In this document: positions 14,318 to 25,310 of the stretch, one piece after another
How the letters are laid out: each line of letters starts with the position of its first letter
Numbering within the stretch: position 1 is the stretch's first letter
Assembly (NCBI GenBank): GCA_944380635.1
Contig: CALWID010000001.1
Location: 88,374-152,373 of the forward strand
DNA length: 64,000 bases
Direction: 5' to 3'
From: an uncultured Eubacterium sp.
Lineage (GTDB): Bacteria; Bacillota; Clostridia; Oscillospirales; Acutalibacteraceae
Notes under the pieces: generated by a model
The model's database searches: none
What the model saw: only the letters and a program-made list of their open reading frames with translations
Told to the model about the DNA's origin: nothing
Made by a program: the position numbers and the translations under genes

Positions 14318-14367
14318 TATATGGTTTTGGAAAATTTTAAATTTATATGATTTTGGAAAATTTTAAA
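14318..14367. repeat. Tandem 24-bp direct repeat (period 26)
   Basis: TATATGGTTTTGGAAAATTTTAAA (14318-14341) and TATATGATTTTGGAAAATTTTAAA (14344-14367), 1 mismatch. Confidence 0.85.
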
Positions 14368-14391
14368 GCGGGCGGAATAATCCGCCCGCTT
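14366..14391 (-). terminator. Terminator hairpin closing the SCP2/aminotransferase/transketolase operon
   Basis: Perfect 11-bp stem AAGCGGGCGGA/TCCGCCCGCTT, 30 nt past the stop at 14422. Confidence 0.75.
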
Positions 14392-14421: not shown

Positions 14422-15216
14422 TTATCTTGCAAGGTCGCCGACTATCATCATATAATCGCCTATCATTGCGCCGAATTCGGGAGCGCCCTCCATAATAAGC
14501 TGCTTATCCTTAACCATCTGGAGCATATCGCCCGTGCCGAGCAGTATCATAAGAGCGTGCTGGGCTGTATCAAACTTCATGCCGAAAAACGGCTTTGAGC
14601 GTTTATATTCGCCCCTGCCGGCGCGGGATTTGCCCGCTTTTATACGCAGGTATGCCGTACATTCCGGATGGCCTTCAATTTCCCACTGATAAACTCTATC
14701 CGGGCTTTTTGAAGTCCATTCATGAATTTCCGGGTGCCCCATTTTATTTAACTGGCTTATGCCGCTTGAAAGCAGATAGAAATATAATTTGCACAAAAGG
14801 AGAGCAAGAGTTTCGTCTTCCGGCGGTTCTTTTATTCCGAGCAGGCTGCTCATTTTAAGAAGCACCGCCATAAATTTAATAAATTTGGAGAAAGACTTAA
14901 TCTTCATCTTCGGAAGTTTCGTCATATCGCCCTTCATAAAGGCATTCATCTTTTCCATAGATGAAAACTGCAACTCAGCGTCTATTTTCTTTTGACCGAA
15001 ATATTCGCCGAGTTTGCACGACCACTCGCCGTTTTCAACTATAAAATGAACCGCTTCCTTATCCTGCGCGTTTACCATTGCGGACACCTGATAAACAGCG
15101 TCCACGCCCTCAAACTTTTTTGCAAGTTCGGGCACATCGGTGGCAATCGTTTTCATAAGCGGGAGCGCCGCCGCCATAAACACTTTATTTGTATAACGGG
15201 TTACATCGCTTGCCAT
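14422..15216 (-). CDS. Hypothetical protein, probable tandem SCP2 (sterol-carrier/lipid-binding)-like domains
   Basis: Two halves each end in an SCP2-like pattern: AELQFSSMEKMNAFMKGD and FGMKFDTAQHALMILLGTGDMLQMVKDKQLIMEG. Fold recognised by eye only. Confidence 0.6.
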   Translation of the reverse strand: MASDVTRYTNKVFMAAALPLMKTIATDVPELAKKFEGVDAVYQVSAMVNAQDKEAVHFIVENGEWSCKLGEYFGQKKIDAELQFSSMEKMNAFMKGDMTKLPKMKIKSFSKFIKFMAVLLKMSSLLGIKEPPEDETLALLLCKLYFYLLSSGISQLNKMGHPEIHEWTSKSPDRVYQWEIEGHPECTAYLRIKAGKSRAGRGEYKRSKPFFGMKFDTAQHALMILLGTGDMLQMVKDKQLIMEGAPEFGAMIGDYMMIVGDLAR

Positions 15217-15261: not shown

Positions 15262-16275
15262 TTAGAACTCGTCGTCCCAAGCGTCATCCTCTTCAAAATC
15301 CTGATGCATTACTTCGGCAATTGCTTCGGCAATACCGTTTGCGTCTATCTTTGCGAGCGACATAAGATCCTCATGCAGACCGATAGTAGAGAAAGCGTCC
15401 TGATGACCGAGCATCTTAAACGCGCACGCTTTACCGCTTTTTGCCACAACATCGGCAACAGCGGAGCCAAGACCGCCGACAACAGTATGGTCTTCAACCG
15501 TGATAATTCTTCTTGTATCCATAACGGCGGACATAATTGCCTCTTCATCAATAGGCTTAATTGTGTGCATATTGATAACACGAACTTTTATGCCGGCGTC
15601 CGCATTTGCCATTTGAGCCGCCTGCATAGCCTGATATACGCATGAGCCGCAGGCAATAACGGTAATATCCGTGCCCTCGTTCATAATCTTTGCTTTGCCG
15701 ATTTCAAAATCGCAGTCCTCAATATTCTTATAAATAATCTGGTCAAATCCGCGGTTAATTCTGATATAAACCGGGCCGGGATACTCATAAGCCTTTTTAA
15801 CGGCATGATATGTTTCAACACCGTCGCACGGGCAAATAACCGTCATATGAGGAAGGCTTCTCATACAAGCCATATCAATAAGAGAATGGTGAGTTGAGCC
15901 TGCCTGACCGAAAGAAGTGCCGGCGTGGGTTGCTATAATCTTAACCGGAACATTCTGATAGCAAATATCGGTATGTATCTGGTCAAGCGAACGAGCCGCG
16001 GTGAAGATAGCAAATGTTGAGGCGAACGGAATAAGCCCGTTTTTAGCCATACCTGCGGCAACGCCAAACATATTCTGCTCCGCGATACCTACATTGAAAA
16101 ATCTATCCGGGAATTTCTCGCCGAACATACCGATTTTAGTAGATTTAGCAAGGTCGGCGGTAAGGGCAACTACATCCTTATGCTCCTCGCCGAGTTCGCA
16201 AAGCGCCTTTCCGTAATATTCAGCCGTGGAAAGCTGAGTGGTTTCCGTCATTGTATAAGTCATTCCGCTTGCCAT
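15262..16275 (-). CDS. Transketolase-family C-terminal subunit (pyrimidine-binding plus C domain), atypical active site
   Basis: RFFNVGIAEQNM, ADLAKST, GPVYIR, VINMHTIKPID and VEDHTVVGGLG motifs. The canonical GEDGxTHQ reads GQAGSTHH. Confidence 0.93.
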   Translation of the reverse strand: MASGMTYTMTETTQLSTAEYYGKALCELGEEHKDVVALTADLAKSTKIGMFGEKFPDRFFNVGIAEQNMFGVAAGMAKNGLIPFASTFAIFTAARSLDQIHTDICYQNVPVKIIATHAGTSFGQAGSTHHSLIDMACMRSLPHMTVICPCDGVETYHAVKKAYEYPGPVYIRINRGFDQIIYKNIEDCDFEIGKAKIMNEGTDITVIACGSCVYQAMQAAQMANADAGIKVRVINMHTIKPIDEEAIMSAVMDTRRIITVEDHTVVGGLGSAVADVVAKSGKACAFKMLGHQDAFSTIGLHEDLMSLAKIDANGIAEAIAEVMHQDFEEDDAWDDEF

Positions 16276-16278
16276 AGC

Positions 16279-17172
16279 TTACGCCTCCTTTTCCGCGCGA
16301 GCCACACGAGCCGCGTAATATTTATCAAGACTGTCATAGCACATTTTTGTTTTTTCATCATCAAGCGCGCCGTAATGCCAGTGATAATCATCTTCCATAA
16401 AGTTGATTCCGGCGCCTTTAATAGTATCCATAACGATACAATAAGGCTTATCTCCGCCGTTTTTATGGTTGTTGATAGCGTTTTCGATAGCGCCGTTAAG
16501 TTCTTTCATATTTTGGCCGTCAACACGCTCAACAAGGAAGCCGAAAGCCTCAAACTTCTTATCAATCGGCTCAACTTTCATTTCGTCGTCAACTCTGCCG
16601 TCTATCATGCACTTATTATTATCAACAAGCACAACAACATTTGAGAGTTTAAACTGCGCGGCAGTCATAGCAGCCTCCCAGTTGGAGCCTTCGTTAAGTT
16701 CGCCGTCGCCGGTAAGAACATAGTTCATATAGTCTATGCCCTTAACTCTGCCGGCAAGGGCAAATCCGCAGGCAAGCGACATACCGTGGCCGAGCGAACC
16801 GCTTGAGCAGTCCACGCCTTTAATCTTATTGCAGTCAAGGTGCATACCGAAAAGCGAACCGGTAAGGTTGAAATTATGAAGACCTTCAACATCCATAAAT
16901 CCGTAATCGCAGATAACGGGGCCGTAACCAACAGCGGCATGACCCTTGGAAAGAATAAATCTGTCCCTATCCTCCATATCCGGATTATTGACATCGAGTT
17001 TCATAAAGCGGTGATAAAGAATAGTCATAGCGTCCATAGCGCTCATTGCGCCGCCTATGTGGCCTGAGCCGCCCCAAACGGTAGTCTGAACGGTAAGGCG
17101 CCTGAGTTCATCCGCCTTTTTTTCAAGGCGGAGCCATTCTTCTTTATCAAATGGCTTGTAATTTGCTGGCAT
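16279..17172 (-). CDS. Transketolase-family N-terminal (ThDP-binding) subunit
   Basis: GHIGG, DRFILSKGH, SGSLGHG and the ThDP motif GDGELNEGSNWEA...DNN. Confidence 0.94.
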   Translation of the reverse strand: MPANYKPFDKEEWLRLEKKADELRRLTVQTTVWGGSGHIGGAMSAMDAMTILYHRFMKLDVNNPDMEDRDRFILSKGHAAVGYGPVICDYGFMDVEGLHNFNLTGSLFGMHLDCNKIKGVDCSSGSLGHGMSLACGFALAGRVKGIDYMNYVLTGDGELNEGSNWEAAMTAAQFKLSNVVVLVDNNKCMIDGRVDDEMKVEPIDKKFEAFGFLVERVDGQNMKELNGAIENAINNHKNGGDKPYCIVMDTIKGAGINFMEDDYHWHYGALDDEKTKMCYDSLDKYYAARVARAEKEA

Positions 17173-17213: not shown

Positions 17214-18488
17214 TTATTTGAGTCCCTCAATTTCCGGATGCCTTTCAGCAACAACGCCGAAAGCATCCTCAGCAATATCAACAGCAAGTTTAACATCATC
17301 AGGCGTTATAGCGGCATTGATGAAATGATTGTGGTGAGAAGCAAGGAAAAGTCCCCTTGAAACACATTCCGCAATCCATTCCTGATGAAGCATAAGGCTG
17401 TCGTCATTCGCAATTCTTAAATAGAACAGAGCCGGCTCGCCGGAAACAATAAGATTAAATCCGTGCTCCTCGGCGGCTTTTGTAAAGCCCTGAGTAACTT
17501 CAGTGCCGATTTTTCTGAACAGATTAGGCACATCAAGTTTTTTCATTTTATTGATACACGCGATACAAGCCGCGAACGGCTCAGCGCTCATCCAATATGA
17601 GCCCGTATATGTAACTGAAGACGCAGTGGATTTCATATGTTCGCCGCCGCATACAGCGGACATATTATAGCCGTTTGCAAGCGCTTTACAGAAGCAGATA
17701 AGGTCTGCTTTAATGCCATAATAATGGTCTGAACCGGCAAGGTCAAGCCTGAAGCCCGTGCGCACATCATCAAAGATAAGCACCATACCGTGCTCGTCGC
17801 AGAATTTACGCACTGCCTGCCAATAATCCTTGGTGGCGCACTCGTTATCCTTGAAATTGCCGTGGTCATAAGGCTGAGCGATAAGACCGGCAACATCGCC
17901 GCCGCACTCATCATAAGCCTGCTGAAGAGCGTCCAAGTCAAACCACGGGATAACAACATTATTTGCAACTTCCTCCGGCAGGATACCGGGGTAATCCACT
18001 TTCTGAGCCCACTGGAAATCGCCGTGATAATATCCCTGAAGGAAAAACATTTTCTTTTTGCCGGTATGCGCTCTTGCGCACATAACTGAAAAAGTGGTGG
18101 CGTCTGAGCCGTTTTTCATAAAGAAAGCCCAGTCCGCGCTGGCAACGGTATCTTTAAGAAGTTCCGCGCACTCAACCATTTTATATGACGGTGAAGTGGT
18201 GCAGTTGCCGCGCTTTAACTGCTCAATCGCGGCGGCGTCTACATCATCATCGCAGTAACCGAGAACATTCGGGCCGTAAGCGCACATAAAATCAAGATAT
18301 TTATTGCCGTCCACATCCCAAAAATATGTACCTTTGGCATGGTCGCTCATAAGCGGCCATTTTGTAATGGGAAGGAAAAGACCTTCGCTTGGGCCAAGGT
18401 GGCCGTATACGCCGGATGGTATAGCCGCAAGCGCCCTTTTAAACCATTCCTGGCTTTTTTCGTGTTTATATTCTGGAAATTTACTCAT
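17214..18488 (-). CDS. Class III PLP aminotransferase, FumI-like subfamily
   Basis: DFMCAYGPNVLGY, KNGSDAT, FDDVRTGFR and PLP lysine in DLICFCKALANG. Start moved to MSKFP at 18488 (AAGGAGG upstream); the ORF track starts at 18557. Confidence 0.88.
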   Translation of the reverse strand: MSKFPEYKHEKSQEWFKRALAAIPSGVYGHLGPSEGLFLPITKWPLMSDHAKGTYFWDVDGNKYLDFMCAYGPNVLGYCDDDVDAAAIEQLKRGNCTTSPSYKMVECAELLKDTVASADWAFFMKNGSDATTFSVMCARAHTGKKKMFFLQGYYHGDFQWAQKVDYPGILPEEVANNVVIPWFDLDALQQAYDECGGDVAGLIAQPYDHGNFKDNECATKDYWQAVRKFCDEHGMVLIFDDVRTGFRLDLAGSDHYYGIKADLICFCKALANGYNMSAVCGGEHMKSTASSVTYTGSYWMSAEPFAACIACINKMKKLDVPNLFRKIGTEVTQGFTKAAEEHGFNLIVSGEPALFYLRIANDDSLMLHQEWIAECVSRGLFLASHHNHFINAAITPDDVKLAVDIAEDAFGVVAERHPEIEGLK

Positions 18489-18507: not shown

Positions 18508-19272
18508 TCAGCCGAGATAAACTGCAACTCTGTCAAGAATTCTGTTGAGATTATCAACCATTGAAATCATACCGGACATATAAATATTGCCCTCGCAGAG
18601 TTCCGCAATAGTGGACGCAGTTCCGTTAAACAAGCCGTGCGCAAGTTCTATGCTTGCAAATTCCATAATTGCCCTGGGGTTTGACGGCTTTTTCTTAATA
18701 GTGGTGAAGTGGTGGTTTTTAACTTGAATTGCCGCATAGCATTTATCTTTAATGCCCATAGAAACAACGCCGTCCACCGTGCTTTTTGCGGTAAACATTG
18801 AAATTGAATCCGAATTGGCAAGCGCTGAAATAGCGCCGGCAATTGTGTAGAAAGTGAGAATGGTGGATTCCTCAAAGAACGCCTTATCTTTTAAATCCTC
18901 TTCACTCGGCCTTAGAAGTTTTGTAAGCCTGTCAGTAAGTTTAGTGAATGTGCCTAACAGGAAAGACAGAACCTGCACAACACCTTTTGTGGGGATACCC
19001 GGCTTAGCGCTGTCTATAAGCGCATTGAATTTTTCCGGTGAAGAAAAGTTCATTTTGCAGGTGCAGCCTGCCGAGCCTTCCCTGAATTTACAGCCGCTTT
19101 TTGTAAAATGGAATGTGCCGCACGGCCCGTTTGCAACATCAAAGCACAGAGAAACGGGCGATTTCATTGCTGCAAGGATATTCTTTGCCTCATCGTCTAT
19201 TTCGCAGAGATTTTCAAGCGTTGCCAGAACGCCGTACATATTCACATATGCCATTGCTTTTGCTTCAGTCAA
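18508..19272 (-). CDS. Hypothetical protein, probable tandem SCP2-like domains (distant paralog of 14422-15216)
   Basis: TTG start after GGAGG. SCP2-like ends: CKMNFSSPEKFNALID and RAIMEFASIELAHGLFNGTASTIAELCEGNIYMSG. Confidence 0.6.
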   Translation of the reverse strand: MTEAKAMAYVNMYGVLATLENLCEIDDEAKNILAAMKSPVSLCFDVANGPCGTFHFTKSGCKFREGSAGCTCKMNFSSPEKFNALIDSAKPGIPTKGVVQVLSFLLGTFTKLTDRLTKLLRPSEEDLKDKAFFEESTILTFYTIAGAISALANSDSISMFTAKSTVDGVVSMGIKDKCYAAIQVKNHHFTTIKKKPSNPRAIMEFASIELAHGLFNGTASTIAELCEGNIYMSGMISMVDNLNRILDRVAVYLG

Positions 19273-19308: not shown

Positions 19309-19338
19309 ATTATACCACATTGTCTGCAACGCGGTCAA
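19309..19338 (-). promoter_or_regulatory. Promoter of the five-gene operon
   Basis: TTGACC (19338-19333), 18-nt spacer, TATAAT (19314-19309) preceded by TG (extended -10). Confidence 0.7.
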
Positions 19339-19431: not shown

Positions 19432-20400
19432 TTAAACGCCCTGTTTTTCAAAGGGATAAACAAGACCGATTTGGCGGCGGCACTCATCCATAATGAGCAT
19501 ACAGTTCCTTGTTGCCTCAAACGGAATATACGCTGATTCTTTTCTGCCCTCTTTTATTTCCAGAGCGGCGCGGGTAAATTCCGTAAGATAATCTGTTTTG
19601 CCCTTAAACACCTGCCTGCCGTTTTCATTTTTAAGGACGGCTTTTGACGCCATATGAAAGAATGCCGGCAGACTTACCGTTCCTTTTTCTCCTTTGATAA
19701 GGCAGTTTTCCTTAAGCGTGCAGAGAGACATATGCAAAACGCAGTTGAATTTTTCATACTTCAAAGTAACTGTTTCGCTGATGTCAATACCGTTTTTAAG
19801 CCTGCCGCGGCATATTATTTCTTTTGGAAAGCCAAAAAGGTTATAACAGTAAGTAATGGGATAAATACCAATATCTAACAGCGCGCCGCCCGCCGTTTCA
19901 GGCATCAGCACGCGAGAATCTTTCGGCATCATTATCCCGGGAAAAGCATAATTTATGACAACTTCCTTTACTGCGCCTATTTCTCCGCCCTGCACCCATT
20001 TTTTAACGGTGAGGGCAACATCTGAAAACCAAGTCCACATAGCCTCGCAGAAATAAACATTTTCCTCTTTTGCGGTATTCACCAAGGCGTCAACATCGCT
20101 GACGCTTACGCCGACCGGCTTTTCACACAAAACGGGTTTTGAAAATTTCATTGCCCTTACGGCGTAATCAACATGTGAAGTATGCGGCGTTGCAATATAA
20201 ACGCCGTCCACATCCGTTCTGTTTACTGCGCTTTCAAAATCAATAAAACTTTGCGCGCCGTATTTTTGCGCAAAAGCGGCAGTTTTTTGGGGATTTCTGC
20301 CGAAAACCGAAACAATTTTATGATTGCCGCGAAGAATATCGCGGGCTGTTGAATTAGCGATATTTCCGCTGCCTATATACGCCCATCTGAATTTTTCCAT
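19432..20400 (-). CDS. Gfo/Idh/MocA-family oxidoreductase
   Basis: IGSGNIA Rossmann motif, YIATPHTSH, VLCEKP and GGALLDIGIYP. Start placed at MEKF (20400). Confidence 0.92.
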   Translation of the reverse strand: MEKFRWAYIGSGNIANSTARDILRGNHKIVSVFGRNPQKTAAFAQKYGAQSFIDFESAVNRTDVDGVYIATPHTSHVDYAVRAMKFSKPVLCEKPVGVSVSDVDALVNTAKEENVYFCEAMWTWFSDVALTVKKWVQGGEIGAVKEVVINYAFPGIMMPKDSRVLMPETAGGALLDIGIYPITYCYNLFGFPKEIICRGRLKNGIDISETVTLKYEKFNCVLHMSLCTLKENCLIKGEKGTVSLPAFFHMASKAVLKNENGRQVFKGKTDYLTEFTRAALEIKEGRKESAYIPFEATRNCMLIMDECRRQIGLVYPFEKQGV

Positions 20401-20610
20401 AATAATCACCATAGCCTTTCAGGCTGCAAAAAAATAAATTAAAATTATTAACGCCCACAACAGTTTATCTAAAAACATCAGCAGGATTTTTTTAATTTCA
20501 TTATAAAGCAAAACGCGCGCCGTATCAACAAAAAAGAAAAAGGGAGCGGCAAAAAAGCCTGCTCCCCATTGAGTAGCCTGATAAAATCAAACAAACAGTT
20601 TAATCTGACA

Positions 20611-21682: not shown

Positions 21683-22873
21683 TTACTTTTTAAAGTTTTC
21701 CGCAACTTCGCCCATTATTTTAACGCCCTTAACAATATCATCATCGCTCGGAGTTGAAAAATTAAGGCGAATATAACTGCACGGCGCGGTATCATCCGTC
21801 ATAAACGCGCTGCCCGGCACAACGGCAACCTTTCTTTCCAGAAGAGCGTTTACATATTTAAGCATATCAACATCATCCGGCAGTTTTGCCCAAATGAACA
21901 GACCGCCCTGAGGACGCACATAAGTGATAAAACCGGCGCAGTATTTATCAAGGCAGTCGCACATAAGATTAAGTTTGCGCCTGTAAATTTTTCTTATATT
22001 TTCTATATGGGCGTCAACATCATACTCATCAAACCAGCGTGAAACTATCATTTGATTGAGCACGCCGGTATGCACATCGGACACCTGCTTGCCGATTGTG
22101 AACGCGCCCGCCGCTTTCCCCGGAACAACGGCATATGCAACTCTTATGCCGGGGGCAAGTATTTTTGAGAATGAACCGGCGTAAAAAACAATACCCTGCG
22201 TATCCAGGCTTTTTATGGCGGGAACATCCTGACCCGCAACGCGAAGATTGCCGTATGGATTATCCTCCAAAATAGCAAGATTGTTTTGGAGCGCAAGACT
22301 ATACATTTTTTTGCGCTTTTCAAGGCTCATCGTTGTGCCGCCGGGATTTTGGAAATTAGGTATTGTATAAATAAATTTGGCGTTTGGATTTTCCTTTATA
22401 ACCCTTTCAAGGGCATCCATATTCATGCCGTCCTCATCAATGGGCACGCCGGCAAGTTTGCAGCCGTGGGAGCGGAAACAATTTAACGAGCCTATAAAAG
22501 ACGGCTCTTCGCAAATTACGGTATCGCCCTCTGAAGCAAGCACGCGGGTTGTTATATCCATAACCTGTGTTCCGCCTGCCGTGATGATTACAACATCATC
22601 GTCAGTGCCAACATTTTCACGCCTTTTAAGCCACTTTTTAACTGTTTCACGCAGCGGCTCATACCCCTCGGAAACTCCGTAAACAAGCGCCGAAACGGGA
22701 TTTTCGCCAAGAATCTCGGCAGTTATTTTTTTAACCTCCTCGCACGGGAAAGCGGCTGTATCGGGTGAGCCGCCGGCAAACGCTATCATACCCGGCTCAT
22801 TTGTAACCTTAAGTATTTCCCTTACTGCGGAGGGTTTTAAACTTGCAAATTTTGATGATAAACTATAACTCAT
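21683..22873 (-). CDS. Class I/II PLP aminotransferase (LysN/AroAT-like, no HTH)
   Basis: FAGGSPD, IYTIPNFQNPGG, ILEDNPY and GSFSKILAPGIR motifs. Confidence 0.9.
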   Translation of the reverse strand: MSYSLSSKFASLKPSAVREILKVTNEPGMIAFAGGSPDTAAFPCEEVKKITAEILGENPVSALVYGVSEGYEPLRETVKKWLKRRENVGTDDDVVIITAGGTQVMDITTRVLASEGDTVICEEPSFIGSLNCFRSHGCKLAGVPIDEDGMNMDALERVIKENPNAKFIYTIPNFQNPGGTTMSLEKRKKMYSLALQNNLAILEDNPYGNLRVAGQDVPAIKSLDTQGIVFYAGSFSKILAPGIRVAYAVVPGKAAGAFTIGKQVSDVHTGVLNQMIVSRWFDEYDVDAHIENIRKIYRRKLNLMCDCLDKYCAGFITYVRPQGGLFIWAKLPDDVDMLKYVNALLERKVAVVPGSAFMTDDTAPCSYIRLNFSTPSDDDIVKGVKIMGEVAENFKK

Positions 22874-22879
22874 TTTTCC

Positions 22880-24001
22880 TCACTTCAAAATTTCATAAAC
22901 AAATCTTTCACACGCTTTGCCGTCGCACAGCGAAACGAATCTTTTTTTGAAATCCTCAAGTTTTTCATTGCCGCGGCGCGCCCTTAAAACAGCGGGCGCA
23001 AGGCTTTCAAAATCTGACACAACCTCGCCGCACGAATAATCGGCATAATCGTAATAAAATCCCCTGCCGCCGTCATACTCGCTGAGGTCAGGAGCGTACA
23101 GCACGGCGGGGTTGCCGATAACGGCGTTTTCAAATATTACGGATGAATAATCCGTAACAAGAACATCTGTTATAAACAGAATATCATTTATTTCCCTTTC
23201 ATCAGAAAAATCAAAAACACGGCTTTTGATATTATCTGAAACGGGCAGTTTTTCCTTTATAAAAGGGTGCATTTTGATTATGAGCGCCCAATTTTCCGGC
23301 AGTGCGTTTATAAAATCTTCAGCATTAAAAAATTCAGCCGGATAATAGGCGTTATGCACATTTTCACCACGGAATGTAGGGGCGAAAAGGCATATTTTTT
23401 TGCCCTTAAGGCGCGGCTCTTTTTTATAAAGCCGTTCCTTTGCGCAGGATATATGGGCACGGTCAAAAAAACAGTCCGTTCGCGGAGAGCCGATTGCTTT
23501 AACACGGCTTTCGTCTATTCCGAACGCCTGGGCGTAAACAGGCACAATTTGCGGCGAGGAAACGATGGCGTCAGTATAATTCCTGTGTGTTATGGAATTC
23601 TTTTCTGCAGTTTTCCTGCCGTATCCAAACCGCTTAAAAGCGCCCATAGCATGCCATACCTGAACAAGCCTTTGCCCCTGCCGCAGGCGCAGAACATACA
23701 CGAGCGGCTCATAATCATCAACCAAAATGAATTTGCTTTGCGCCATTTCGGCGGCAAGTTCGTTTTGGGGCATAGGCTCAACGGAAGTTACGGCTTTTAT
23801 CTCATAATCAAGATTATTATTTTCTATATAATTTTTAATTGCAAGCAGGTTCCCGCCGAGTTTTCCCTTTGAAGATGAATACATAAGTATTTTTTTATCA
23901 TTCATAGGAAGTTTTTTAGCCTTTTCAAATTTGGCGGCAAAACCCGCGTATCTTGCCCTTTGCAGAACAGGATACAACAGCGATTTAATTTTGCTCATCA
24001 T
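22880..24001 (-). CDS. CDP-glycerol/ribitol glycerophosphotransferase family (TagB/TagF-like)
   Basis: QVWHAMGAFKRFG, LFAPTFRG, KMHP, LVTDYSSVIFE and DGKACER motifs. Confidence 0.9.
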   Translation of the reverse strand: MMSKIKSLLYPVLQRARYAGFAAKFEKAKKLPMNDKKILMYSSSKGKLGGNLLAIKNYIENNNLDYEIKAVTSVEPMPQNELAAEMAQSKFILVDDYEPLVYVLRLRQGQRLVQVWHAMGAFKRFGYGRKTAEKNSITHRNYTDAIVSSPQIVPVYAQAFGIDESRVKAIGSPRTDCFFDRAHISCAKERLYKKEPRLKGKKICLFAPTFRGENVHNAYYPAEFFNAEDFINALPENWALIIKMHPFIKEKLPVSDNIKSRVFDFSDEREINDILFITDVLVTDYSSVIFENAVIGNPAVLYAPDLSEYDGGRGFYYDYADYSCGEVVSDFESLAPAVLRARRGNEKLEDFKKRFVSLCDGKACERFVYEILK

Positions 24002-25310
24002 CTGTTTCTTCTTCGCTCACGGCAGTCTGTGGATTTTCGGCTGAATCATCGGCTGACCCGTCAGCCGTATCATTATCATCAGCAGCGCTTTCGGGCTCTT
24101 TTTCCGGCTGAACATCATCTGAAATAACGCCGTAATTATAACGCCCGTCATAAACACCGCGGGCGAGTTCGTCAATCAGTTTGCCGTATTCGGCGGTTAT
24201 GGAATCAAAGCGCTTATTTACATATGCCTTTTTAAACTTCTCTTCCTTTTCCCTGCCGGCACGCATTGAGCACGCGATAAATTCGCATATACCTTTTGCG
24301 TTCTTTGAATAAAGAGCGGGAAGTTCCGTCCAAAAATCAATATAAAATCCGCGCTCGTCTATATATTTATCGCTGTCAAAACAATAAATATAAATAGGCA
24401 AGTCTTTTAAAAGCGCCTCATATATAACGGAACTGTAATCCGTTACAACAAAATCCGCCGCGCACATAAAATCCATTGCGGTAAAATTTTCGCCCTCAGT
24501 CATATTCATACGCGAATCGGTATAAATCTGCTCTTTATTGGAATCCACAACATGATGCTTTACAATAAGGTTAAAATCAGAATAATTAACTTTATTTACA
24601 AGGTCCTCAGTTGCTTTTACAAGAGCCGCCTTATCCTCTTCAGTATCACGGAATGTTGGGGCATAAAGAATATTTTTGCGCCCGTTATCAAGCCCCGGAT
24701 ATTTGCGCAGAATATTGCCGCGCACCCTTGCGCTTTCCTCTTTATCCGTAAGATAATCCATACGGGGAATACCTATCGGAATAAACCTGCTTTCCGGCTG
24801 GCCGAAAGCCTGGGAAAAAAACGGCACGCACTCATCGCCGCTGGCAGCGATAAGGCTGTAATTTTTATGCATTTTAAACGCCTTGGCAGTCTTTGAGGAT
24901 TTGCCGCCCTCTTTATCAAGAACAGACCTTCCGAATTTTTTAAAAGCGCCGAGAGCATGCCAAATCTGAATAATTTTGAGTTCTTTTTTATGCTTTAGCA
25001 TTGACGCAAGAATGCAATATCCGTCAAGCACAACAACCTTTGAAGTTGCAAATGCTTTCATCTGGCGAAACATCTCGCCAAGATACTTAACTTTTCCGCT
25101 GAAAGAATCAGGTATCATTTTACACAGCACAACAACTTTATACTGCGGATAATTTGTTTTTATCTCATTTATAAGATAGCGGAAATCTATTGACGGCGTT
25201 TCGCTCTGGCGGGATATGAACGCGATTTTATCTTCCGTTTTGCGGTGCTTATAAAAGGAATAGAAAAATCCCATTACAGCGCCAAAAATTTTTGCAAAAA
25301 CACCTATCAC
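23985..25310 (-). CDS. CDP-glycerol/ribitol glycerophosphotransferase family with acidic C-terminal tail
   Basis: QIWHALGAFKKFG, LYAPTFRD and VVTDYSSVIYE motifs; about 45-aa D/E-rich tail. Confidence 0.88.
   Translation of the reverse strand: MIGVFAKIFGAVMGFFYSFYKHRKTEDKIAFISRQSETPSIDFRYLINEIKTNYPQYKVVVLCKMIPDSFSGKVKYLGEMFRQMKAFATSKVVVLDGYCILASMLKHKKELKIIQIWHALGAFKKFGRSVLDKEGGKSSKTAKAFKMHKNYSLIAASGDECVPFFSQAFGQPESRFIPIGIPRMDYLTDKEESARVRGNILRKYPGLDNGRKNILYAPTFRDTEEDKAALVKATEDLVNKVNYSDFNLIVKHHVVDSNKEQIYTDSRMNMTEGENFTAMDFMCAADFVVTDYSSVIYEALLKDLPIYIYCFDSDKYIDERGFYIDFWTELPALYSKNAKGICEFIACSMRAGREKEEKFKKAYVNKRFDSITAEYGKLIDELARGVYDGRYNYGVISDDVQPEKEPESAADDNDTADGSADDSAENPQTAVSEEETDDEQN

Follow-up and report, generated by a model that had tools for sequence, protein, structure and literature searches.

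What does a transketolase act on once two of the residues that hold its sugar-phosphate substrates have been replaced? The question is raised by two adjacent genes in a 64,000-nucleotide stretch of the genome of an uncultured Eubacterium sp. (GCA_944380635.1; the whole stretch is called the window below), which encode the subunits of a split transketolase that we term TK-N and TK-C. An initial annotation had proposed that the pair has lost the hydroxyl-binding aspartate and one phosphate-binding arginine, and that it is naturally adapted to an unphosphorylated aldehyde lacking an α-hydroxyl, such as a fatty aldehyde. We favor a reading in which TK-N and TK-C form an α2β2 thiamine diphosphate (ThDP)-dependent transketolase with intact catalytic machinery and a re-specified substrate funnel, which would transfer a C2 unit reversibly between a long-chain 1,3-dihydroxy-2-ketone and a sugar phosphate, and do so mainly in the degradative direction in the cell. 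To this reading we assign a probability of about 0.45.

The split transketolase and its substrate pocket

TK-N (297 amino acids; positions 16279-17172, minus strand) is the ThDP-binding, or PP-domain, subunit, and TK-C (337 amino acids; positions 15262-16275, minus strand) comprises the Pyr and C-terminal domains; a gap of 3 bp separates the two genes. The Pfam domains Transketolase_N (147 bits, in TK-N), Transket_pyr (152 bits) and Transketolase_C (100 bits, both in TK-C) were all detected above their cut-offs of 22, 27, and 25.9 bits, respectively. The best solved relatives are 6YAK for TK-N (E = 1e-57) and 6YAJ for TK-C (E = 1e-79). Against the NCBIfam model NF004559 the two chains scored 226 and 287 bits, respectively, the cut-off of 488 bits being meant for a single chain of 627 residues. 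Judged by its domains, cofactor motifs, and catalytic residues, the pair is a member of the transketolase family.

The ThDP motif and the catalytic histidines had been described as intact in the initial annotation, and this is borne out in both subunits. TK-N contains the ThDP/metal motif (LTGDGELNEG...VDNN), and the activating glutamate (E. coli E411), which is present in all representatives of the family survey described below, is E66 of TK-C, within GIAEQ. The catalytic and ketol-binding histidines of the E. coli enzyme (H26, H66, H100, H261, and H473) correspond to H38, H78, H111, and H266 of TK-N and to H129 of TK-C (codon at 15889-15891; this and all following codons are on the minus strand), and they are conserved throughout the clade of close relatives; the residue after His129 is His130, where canonical enzymes have Gln. 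Since the residues for formation of dihydroxyethyl-ThDP and for binding of the C1- and C3-hydroxyls of the ketol are all present, true ketol transfer is to be expected. The neighbors of the TK-N histidines are more hydrophobic in the clade, with GHPGG changed to GH(I/L/V)GG and QGHP to G(I/M)HLD, and the clade-specific changes beside the retained histidines read GHIGG, GMHLD, GSLGHG, and WHYG.

In E. coli transketolase, R358, S385, H461, and R520 bind the phosphate, whilst D469 binds a sugar hydroxyl, takes part in stereoselection and is a hotspot for engineering (PMC11387542, PMC7661550). We established the equivalent residues by phmmer alignment to solved structures, together with the codon positions. 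Residues 123-130 of TK-C read GQAGSTHH in place of the canonical GEDGxTHQ, and Ala125 (codon GCA, 15901-15903) aligns with the Asp of GEDGASHQ in 6YAJ and with human D424, i.e., with the position of E. coli D469, the ligand of the acceptor C2-OH (equivalent to the donor C4-OH). Residues 16-22 read STAEYYG in place of ATRxxYG, and Ala18 (codon GCT, 16222-16224) aligns with the Arg of IATREAYG in 6YAJ and with human R318, the phosphate ligand R358 of E. coli. Moreover, the H117-A125-H129 spacing equals that of H461-D469-H473 in E. coli, and the A18-D41-L42-S45 spacing that of R358-D381-L382-S385. Based on these alignments and spacings, the Asp and Arg have been replaced rather than shifted, and both substitutions stand exactly as first read by eye.

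The other three phosphate ligands are retained, again as initially noted: Ser45 (in KST; 16141-16143) at the position of S385, His117 (in THA; 15925-15927) at that of H461, and Arg175 (in RINR; 15751-15753) at that of R520. The S-T pair occurs in every listed clade variant of D-L-x-x-S-T-K/Q-I/M, the motif around Arg175 is YIRI(N/G)RGF clade-wide, and His117 has a counterpart that other Asp-less transketolase-like proteins often lack. Compared with a canonical sugar-phosphate transketolase (EC 2.2.1.1), TK-C thus has Ala125 in place of D469, and only the R358 position (Ala18) of the phosphate set R358/S385/H461/R520 is changed.

The consequences for the substrate can be sketched from these positions. 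With Ala at the D469 position, the hydroxyl beside the scissile bond would lose its hydrogen-bond partner, and a small residue at the R358 position would open up the phosphate site on one side, where the funnel has its mouth. Both replacements would suit a partner with a plain hydrocarbon chain running outward from that carbon, so that the preferred partner would be a long-chain aldehyde without α-hydroxyl or phosphate, paired with its long-chain 1,3-dihydroxy-2-ketone. Because three phosphate ligands are kept that are often lost in Asp-less relatives, we infer a sugar phosphate as second substrate, which the S385, H461, and R520 equivalents would bind in a ping-pong reaction. The earlier notion of an unphosphorylated substrate therefore survives in part: the Arg is mostly lost, but retention of the other ligands suggests that the partner substrate is still anionic or phosphorylated.

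Conservation of the substitutions in a five-gene cassette

A scan of one genome per species found 596 relatives, of which the best 80 were retained, and the cassette counts given here rest on these. Their TK-C sequences are 59-91% identical to that of the window. Wherever the contig is long enough, the genes follow one order: a tandem-SCP2 protein of ~250 amino acids, a class-III aminotransferase, TK-N, TK-C, and another tandem-SCP2 protein of ~260 amino acids. The cassette occurs in at least five phyla. The record titles of the 80 relatives name Oscillospiraceae, Acutalibacteraceae, Lutispora, Oceanirhabdus, and Spirochaetota, among others, together with Bacteroidota (Draconibacterium, Lentimicrobiaceae, and a Flavobacteriaceae bin) and Desulfobacterales/Deltaproteobacteria bins; bins labeled Thermodesulfobacteriota or Myxococcota and one Actinomycetota bin also carry it, with the proviso that taxon labels of metagenome bins may be wrong.

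Ala125 is present in 81/81 cassette sequences. At position 18, Ala occurs 74 times and Ser three times, with single cases of Met, Asn, Thr, and Arg (the Arg at locus L082), so that 80/81 are non-Arg there. The sequences indicate that the Asp-to-Ala change is a fixed signature of the clade, and that loss of the Arg is nearly, though not strictly, universal; substitutions fixed to this extent across the clade are no chance event. All catalytic residues are kept in the 80 sequences, and the substitutions travel with the operon at all 80 loci, in keeping with the tie between pocket and operon drawn in the initial annotation.

Further traits of TK-C are peculiar to the clade, including Phe122, His130, His101, and Ile48, as well as the conserved G4, Y7, and T8, which sit in an N-terminal stretch missing from most canonical representatives. 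At its other end, TK-C has an acidic, clade-specific tail (15265-15300, minus strand; DFEEDDAWDDEF; clade consensus DFEEDDxWDDE[F/V]), in which >90% of the clade members have W333, D335, and E336, as against 0/57 canonical representatives. The downstream tandem-SCP2 protein possesses an invariant basic loop (RVKAGKSKAGRG-like), and the two may form a docking pair. The pair in the window belongs to this cassette-type clade, which is defined in the present analysis and does not correspond to a curated family: it shares the Ala at the D469 position, the S385/H461/R520 equivalents, the W-containing tail, and the FumI-like and tandem-SCP2 flanking genes.

A profile search with the downstream tandem-SCP2 protein located the cassette in about 9/399 sampled genomes of the class and in 1/8 of the family, and hence it is a patchy accessory trait. 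In a tree of TK-C sequences, the Bacteroidota, Desulfobacterota-type, and Leptospirales members group together, and a Bifidobacteriaceae bin falls inside the Acutalibacteraceae, a pattern that would fit horizontal transfer or mis-binning.

Place in the transketolase family and in the genome

The genome (Clostridia; 2.0 Mb, 98.65% complete) contains three split transketolase-like pairs and one DXS-like frame. One pair, on contig C22, is canonical (CIATRESYG, THAGISVGEDGASHQ), and given this separate split transketolase in the same genome, TK-N/TK-C is not the housekeeping enzyme. Canonical split transketolases keep both Arg and Asp, as seen in this pair and in 84/143 near-full-length representatives, so the substitutions are not those of ordinary housekeeping enzymes. 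The third pair (contig C8, 29879-31677; L095:6880-8678) lies in a cluster of glycosyltransferase and aldo-keto-reductase genes, keeps the Arg (AVRD), reads VGGGFTYGSLGMSHH, and lacks the H461 and D469 equivalents; this pair probably encodes a ThDP enzyme that modifies sugars for a surface polysaccharide.

We also surveyed the family among 1.84 billion representatives clustered at 50% identity, where scores of 407 and 375 bits are followed by values of 317 bits and lower. Among the 150 listed neighbors, 85 have Arg and Asp at the two positions, 11 have Arg and Leu, six Arg and Ala, five Ala and Ala, and the rest other combinations. A FastTree phylogeny of the full-length representatives, with SH-like local supports only, consists of two halves, one mostly canonical and the other with zero Arg-plus-Asp members; the cassette clade is nested in the latter, beside sequences with Asn/Gly, Val/Ala, and Thr/Ala (SH-like 82-98). 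As the entire non-canonical branch shares it, the loss of Asp alone cannot identify a function: from the tree, it is an old feature of a whole branch of specialized transketolase-like proteins. What sets the cassette clade apart is rather a combination of sequence features, namely Ala125 with S45, H117, and R175 (all three kept clade-wide, vs. 9/51 other Asp-less transketolase-like representatives), Phe122/His130/His101/Ile48, the N-terminal residues, and the acidic tail.

Two other identities were rejected. TK-C scored 287 bits with the transketolase model vs. 215 bits with the DXS model TIGR00204, the protein consists of two chains rather than a single chain of ~620 amino acids, and the genome has a separate DXS-like frame of 618 amino acids on contig C15. 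Kinship to AniP, a transketolase-family enzyme of anisomycin biosynthesis, was discarded given that TK-N/TK-C keep both the His-rich motif and an R520 equivalent.

That the genome holds three split transketolase-like pairs, and that Asp-less transketolase-like proteins are common, might suggest a decaying or redundant paralogue with meaningless substitutions, or else an ordinary pentose-phosphate enzyme with tolerated changes. However, the identity of 59-91% across phyla, with catalytic residues and both substitutions fixed, and the strictly conserved gene order already contradict such a reading, and the canonical pair fills the housekeeping role; as far as the sequences tell, we regard it as highly improbable.

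The aminotransferase and tandem-SCP2 neighbors

Directly upstream of TK-N is a class-III aminotransferase of 424 amino acids counted from its ATG (17214-18488, minus strand). Its closest solved relative is the aminopentol aminotransferase FumI (6HBS; E = 4e-79), with 269 bits vs. 162 bits for the best HemL (glutamate-semialdehyde aminomutase). One tandem-SCP2 protein (18508-19254, minus strand) is always directly upstream of the aminotransferase, and the other (14422-15216, minus strand) always directly downstream of TK-C. Neither flanking protein gave a Pfam match at E-values up to 10, a profile search of PDB sequences also yielded no match, and only fold comparison produced an assignment. 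Foldseek matched the AlphaFold2 model of the first protein (pLDDT 91) to SCP2, UbiJ, and the SCP2 domain of alkylsulfatase, and that of the second (pLDDT 95) to SCP2-type structures. The models thus indicate that each is folded as two SCP2-type domains, and the two proteins are weak paralogues of each other. A distant tandem-SCP2 homologue in Clostridia (L090:7996-8814), located beside phosphoglucomutase and transposase genes, has a sub-threshold Pfam SCP2 match (E = 7e-4), which is the only sequence-level link of the family to SCP2.

Together, the predicted functions and folds of these neighbors point to a hydrophobic substrate. The non-hydroxylated, unphosphorylated aldehyde of fatty type proposed at the outset is therefore supported in part by the residue losses, the operon linkage, and the FumI-like/SCP2 context, but is tempered by the facts that Asp loss is not diagnostic on its own and Arg loss is not universal (L082).

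The cassette appears to consist of two modules, carrier-aminotransferase and transketolase-carrier, which are permuted at locus L017. At two loci in Clostridia (L092:7948-10952 and L093:7678-9804) a carrier-aminotransferase pair occurs without the transketolase, with an SDR gene directly after it in one, and looks like an independent module. In a distant variant (genome G009; L089:6059-13151), TK-N, TK-C (Gly and Ala at positions 18 and 125), and a 304-amino-acid carrier lie on one strand, and the carrier-aminotransferase pair on the opposite strand; a flavin-reductase/rubrerythrin fusion is encoded between the modules, and a second, different split transketolase-like pair upstream.

In the window, the five genes are bracketed by a promoter-like site (19309-19338, minus strand; TTGACC, 18 nt, TATAAT, extended TG; 11/12 consensus matches) and, just past the last gene, a GC-rich hairpin with an 11-bp stem (14366-14391), both of them pattern matches only. 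Other genes of the window were considered and dropped as pathway parts on the grounds that they are not conserved beside the cassette in other lineages: SHMT (serine hydroxymethyltransferase), two TagF-like glycerophosphotransferases, a class I/II aminotransferase, TrpS, a Gfo/Idh/MocA oxidoreductase, and pyruvate kinase. The oxidoreductase gene (19432-20412) is just upstream of the promoter-like site, and is not conserved beside the cassette elsewhere. The two TagF-like CDP-glycerol glycerophosphotransferase genes overlap and, with the class I/II aminotransferase gene, occupy 21683-25310 between glyA and trpS; close relatives (L009, L014) share part of this arrangement, which is unrelated to the cassette.

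Proposed reaction and its direction

Taken together, the pathway that we favor would begin with deamination of a sphingoid-type 2-amino-1,3-diol to its 2-ketone by the FumI-like aminotransferase. The transketolase would then cut the C2-C3 bond and move the glycolaldehyde unit to an aldose phosphate, for example turning glyceraldehyde 3-phosphate into xylulose 5-phosphate (Xu5P), after which the fatty aldehyde or 2-enal would leave. One tandem-SCP2 lipid carrier would be dedicated to each enzyme. Both enzymes can run either way, and nothing in the window itself hints at the direction; such hints come from genes that extend the cassette in other lineages.

These extensions occur in non-gut lineages and lie on the cassette strand. 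The cassette is followed by a TetR regulator at 14 loci (e.g., L079), a VOC/glyoxalase-fold protein at eight (e.g., L063, L046), and a 756-amino-acid Fe-S flavoenzyme of the BaiCD/FadH/bilirubin-reductase family at five (e.g., L042, L046, L062, L063); enzymes of this family reduce C=C bonds conjugated to carbonyls. An aldehyde dehydrogenase follows at three loci (L078, L059, L067), directly after the carrier in Draconibacterium aestuarii (L078:10899-12350), and an MFS transporter at three (L061, L062, L081). Two loci (L042, L061) have a tungsten-type aldehyde:ferredoxin oxidoreductase by the cassette, which adjoins it in a Peptococcaceae bin (L061:8877-10832). The same-strand extension of flavoenzyme (756-920 amino acids) and TetR (L046:10800-14700, L063:10823 onward, L042, L062) was seen in Lutispora, Oceanirhabdus, and some further non-gut lineages, among them a Treponemataceae bin; the flavoenzyme is in turn preceded by the VOC/glyoxalase-fold protein in Lutispora, Oceanirhabdus, and L042.

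Cleavage of sphingosine would yield trans-2-hexadecenal, and that of sphinganine hexadecanal. Such a cleavage would be expected to be followed by enzymes that consume aldehydes and by an enal/enone reductase, and on these grounds we prefer breakdown or detoxification to synthesis. We do so by a modest margin, as most loci lack aldehyde-handling neighbors and an aldehyde:ferredoxin oxidoreductase may also produce aldehydes. Of the earlier operon hypothesis, which assumed a synthetic direction, the hydrophobic-substrate context is upheld, but the neighboring genes in other lineages favor the aldehyde as product, i.e., degradation.

In the biosynthetic direction, the transketolase would extend a fatty aldehyde by a C2 ketol unit donated by hydroxypyruvate or a ketose phosphate, and the aminotransferase would convert the resulting 1,3-dihydroxy-2-ketone into a long-chain 2-amino-1,3-diol, giving a sphingoid base without serine palmitoyltransferase; with serine as amino donor, the hydroxypyruvate arising from it could supply the transketolase (serine + aldehyde -> aminodiol + CO2). 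This direction shares with degradation the evidence from residues, operon, and folds, and its chemistry parallels that of engineered transketolase/transaminase cascades. The cassette is self-contained, with no catabolic transporter, and the aldehyde:ferredoxin oxidoreductase near it at two loci could make the aldehyde from the acid. A search of the genome found no α-oxoamine synthase, and hence no canonical route, which is as compatible with scavenging of foreign sphingoid bases as with an alternative synthetic one. In contrast, no aldehyde-forming reductase, N-acyltransferase, or other lipid-assembly gene is linked to the cassette, and its patchy spread (the 9/399 and 1/8 given above) suits an accessory trait better than synthesis of membrane lipids. 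Hydroxypyruvate as donor would also leave the conservation of the S385, H461, and R520 equivalents unexplained, the linked aldehyde dehydrogenase, C=C reductase, and TetR suit removal of an aldehyde product, and the 3S product to be expected would be threo, which is not the natural sphingoid configuration. We therefore consider biosynthesis unlikely, although it is the alternative that we take most seriously.

Several observations also weigh against the degradative reading. None of the aldehyde-handling genes is found in the window, and an aldehyde:ferredoxin oxidoreductase may run towards aldehyde formation. The cassette carries no ceramidase, kinase, or transporter gene. Searches of the genome, which returned one weak ALDH-family frame only, give no independent sign of sphingolipid use and decide neither direction; a ceramidase model matched no sequence, the controls included, and so carries no information. 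Lipid binding is usual for SCP2 folds, though not without exception. With Ala in place of D469, binding of Xu5P and fructose 6-phosphate should be weakened as well, by way of their C4-OH, which makes the sugar-phosphate partner insecure. Finally, canonical transketolases make and cleave 3S ketols, such as L-erythrulose and D-xylulose 5-phosphate, whereas sphingoid bases of the natural D-erythro form are 2S,3R and stay R at C3 when C2 is oxidized. By our own stereochemical reasoning, the 3S geometry would thus mismatch the 3R ketone of D-erythro bases. An altered facial selectivity, an epimerizing step (candidates would be the VOC protein or certain polar residues, strikingly conserved, in the carriers), or a threo aminodiol as the true substrate might each account for the mismatch. 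The fumonisin backbone accepted by FumI is 2S,3S (threo), and would match transketolase geometry.

The last option leads to a reading with the same chemistry and a different class of hydrophobic partner, for example an aldehyde of aromatic or isoprenoid type, a medium-chain aldehyde from fermentation, or, as with the fumonisin/AAL backbone, a 1-deoxy (methyl-ketone) aminopolyol. The threo configuration of the fumonisin backbone would fit 3S better than do the D-erythro sphingoids. The substrate of FumI is itself a 1-deoxy aminopolyol (PMC3136697). Furthermore, quinones (UbiJ) and alkyl sulfates are also among the ligands of SCP2 folds, engineered D469/R358 variants take aromatic aldehydes (PMC7661550), and AniP/AniQ is a natural pair of transketolase and aminotransferase with an aromatic substrate. 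On the other hand, the H100 and H473 equivalents, which bind the C1-OH of the donor, are strictly kept, favoring a hydroxymethyl ketol over a 1-deoxy ketone; enzymes of the AniP type lack the His-rich motif that TK-N/TK-C keep; and no genes of aromatic or isoprenoid pathways are linked. On balance we judge such a substrate quite improbable.

Returning to the long-chain 1,3-dihydroxy-2-ketone and its degradation, the cassette could represent an undescribed sphingoid-lipid route in anaerobic bacteria of several phyla, independent of phosphorylation, serine palmitoyltransferase, and sphingosine-1-phosphate lyase. In such a route, which we put forward tentatively as having a little less than even odds, an aminodiol would be interconverted with a fatty aldehyde plus a C2 unit exchanged with the pentose-phosphate pool, and the SCP2 carriers would deliver the lipid. 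In the literature on split transketolase/aminotransferase, transketolase/sphingoid base, and FumI/transketolase, we found no description of the five-gene operon.

If this is correct, transketolase chemistry in nature reaches from sugar phosphates to substrates the size of membrane lipids, and provides a new means to make or break the sphingoid C2-C3 bond. This would bear on gut and rumen Firmicutes facing antimicrobial or dietary sphingolipids: Clostridia of these habitats could detoxify or scavenge sphingoid bases from the host, the diet, or Bacteroidota. Two unannotated families, the tandem-SCP2 partners, would gain a function, and biocatalysis of chiral long-chain ketodiols and amino-diols would gain a natural scaffold, conserved across phyla, in which exactly the positions mutated by engineers are changed; the engineered transketolase/transaminase cascade would have its counterpart in nature.

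Comparison with known systems

The closest characterized enzyme is the split transketolase of Carboxydothermus hydrogenoformans (6YAJ/6YAK; PMC7661550), with which TK-N/TK-C shares an identical ThDP motif, activating Glu, and catalytic His. It differs in having IATRE and GEDGASHQ, with Arg and Asp present, where TK-C has STAE and GQAGSTHH, and only TK-C has the N-terminal G4/Y7/T8, the acidic C-terminal tail, and a lipid-type operon. The same positions as in TK-C have been changed in the laboratory: as cited in PMC7661550 and PMC10787763, E. coli and Geobacillus transketolases were mutated at D469, R358, R520, and S385 for non-hydroxylated aliphatic or aromatic aldehydes and non-phosphorylated substrates, work that is credited there to Hibbert (2008) and Payongsri (2012/2015). 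Those variants are artificial single to triple mutants, whereas the changes in TK-C are natural, fixed across phyla, and accompanied by retention of the S385, H461, and R520 equivalents.

AniP/AniQ of anisomycin biosynthesis (PMC11387542) likewise combines a natural ThDP enzyme of the transketolase family with an aminotransferase, acts on a non-phosphorylated substrate, and has the D469 position replaced, by Trp in AniP. Unlike TK-N/TK-C, AniP is a single chain without the His-rich motif and the phosphate ligands, has Asp in place of R520, and uses an aromatic 2-keto acid (PMC11387542). It is found in antibiotic clusters of actinomycetes, Chromobacterium, and Pseudomonas together with an SDR, and shows no clade-level kinship to TK-C.

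The similarity to FumI (6HBS) concerns the aminotransferase, i.e., the neighboring gene and not the transketolase. FumI from Sphingopyxis sp. MTA144 removes the 2-amino substituent of hydrolyzed fumonisin B1, a long-chain 2-amino-3-ol, using pyruvate (PMC3136697). In contrast to the cassette enzyme, it is part of an aerobic fumonisin-degradation cluster. To our knowledge, that cluster has no transketolase or SCP2 partner.

Sphingosine-1-phosphate lyase is a functional analogue only. This pyridoxal phosphate-dependent enzyme cuts the sphingoid C2-C3 bond to give hexadecenal or hexadecanal and phosphoethanolamine, and needs prior phosphorylation of its substrate. The proposed route would also yield a long-chain aldehyde and a two-carbon fragment, but by deamination followed by ThDP-dependent ketol transfer into sugar phosphates, with no phosphorylation. 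The proposed pathway also resembles the engineered transketolase/transaminase cascades.

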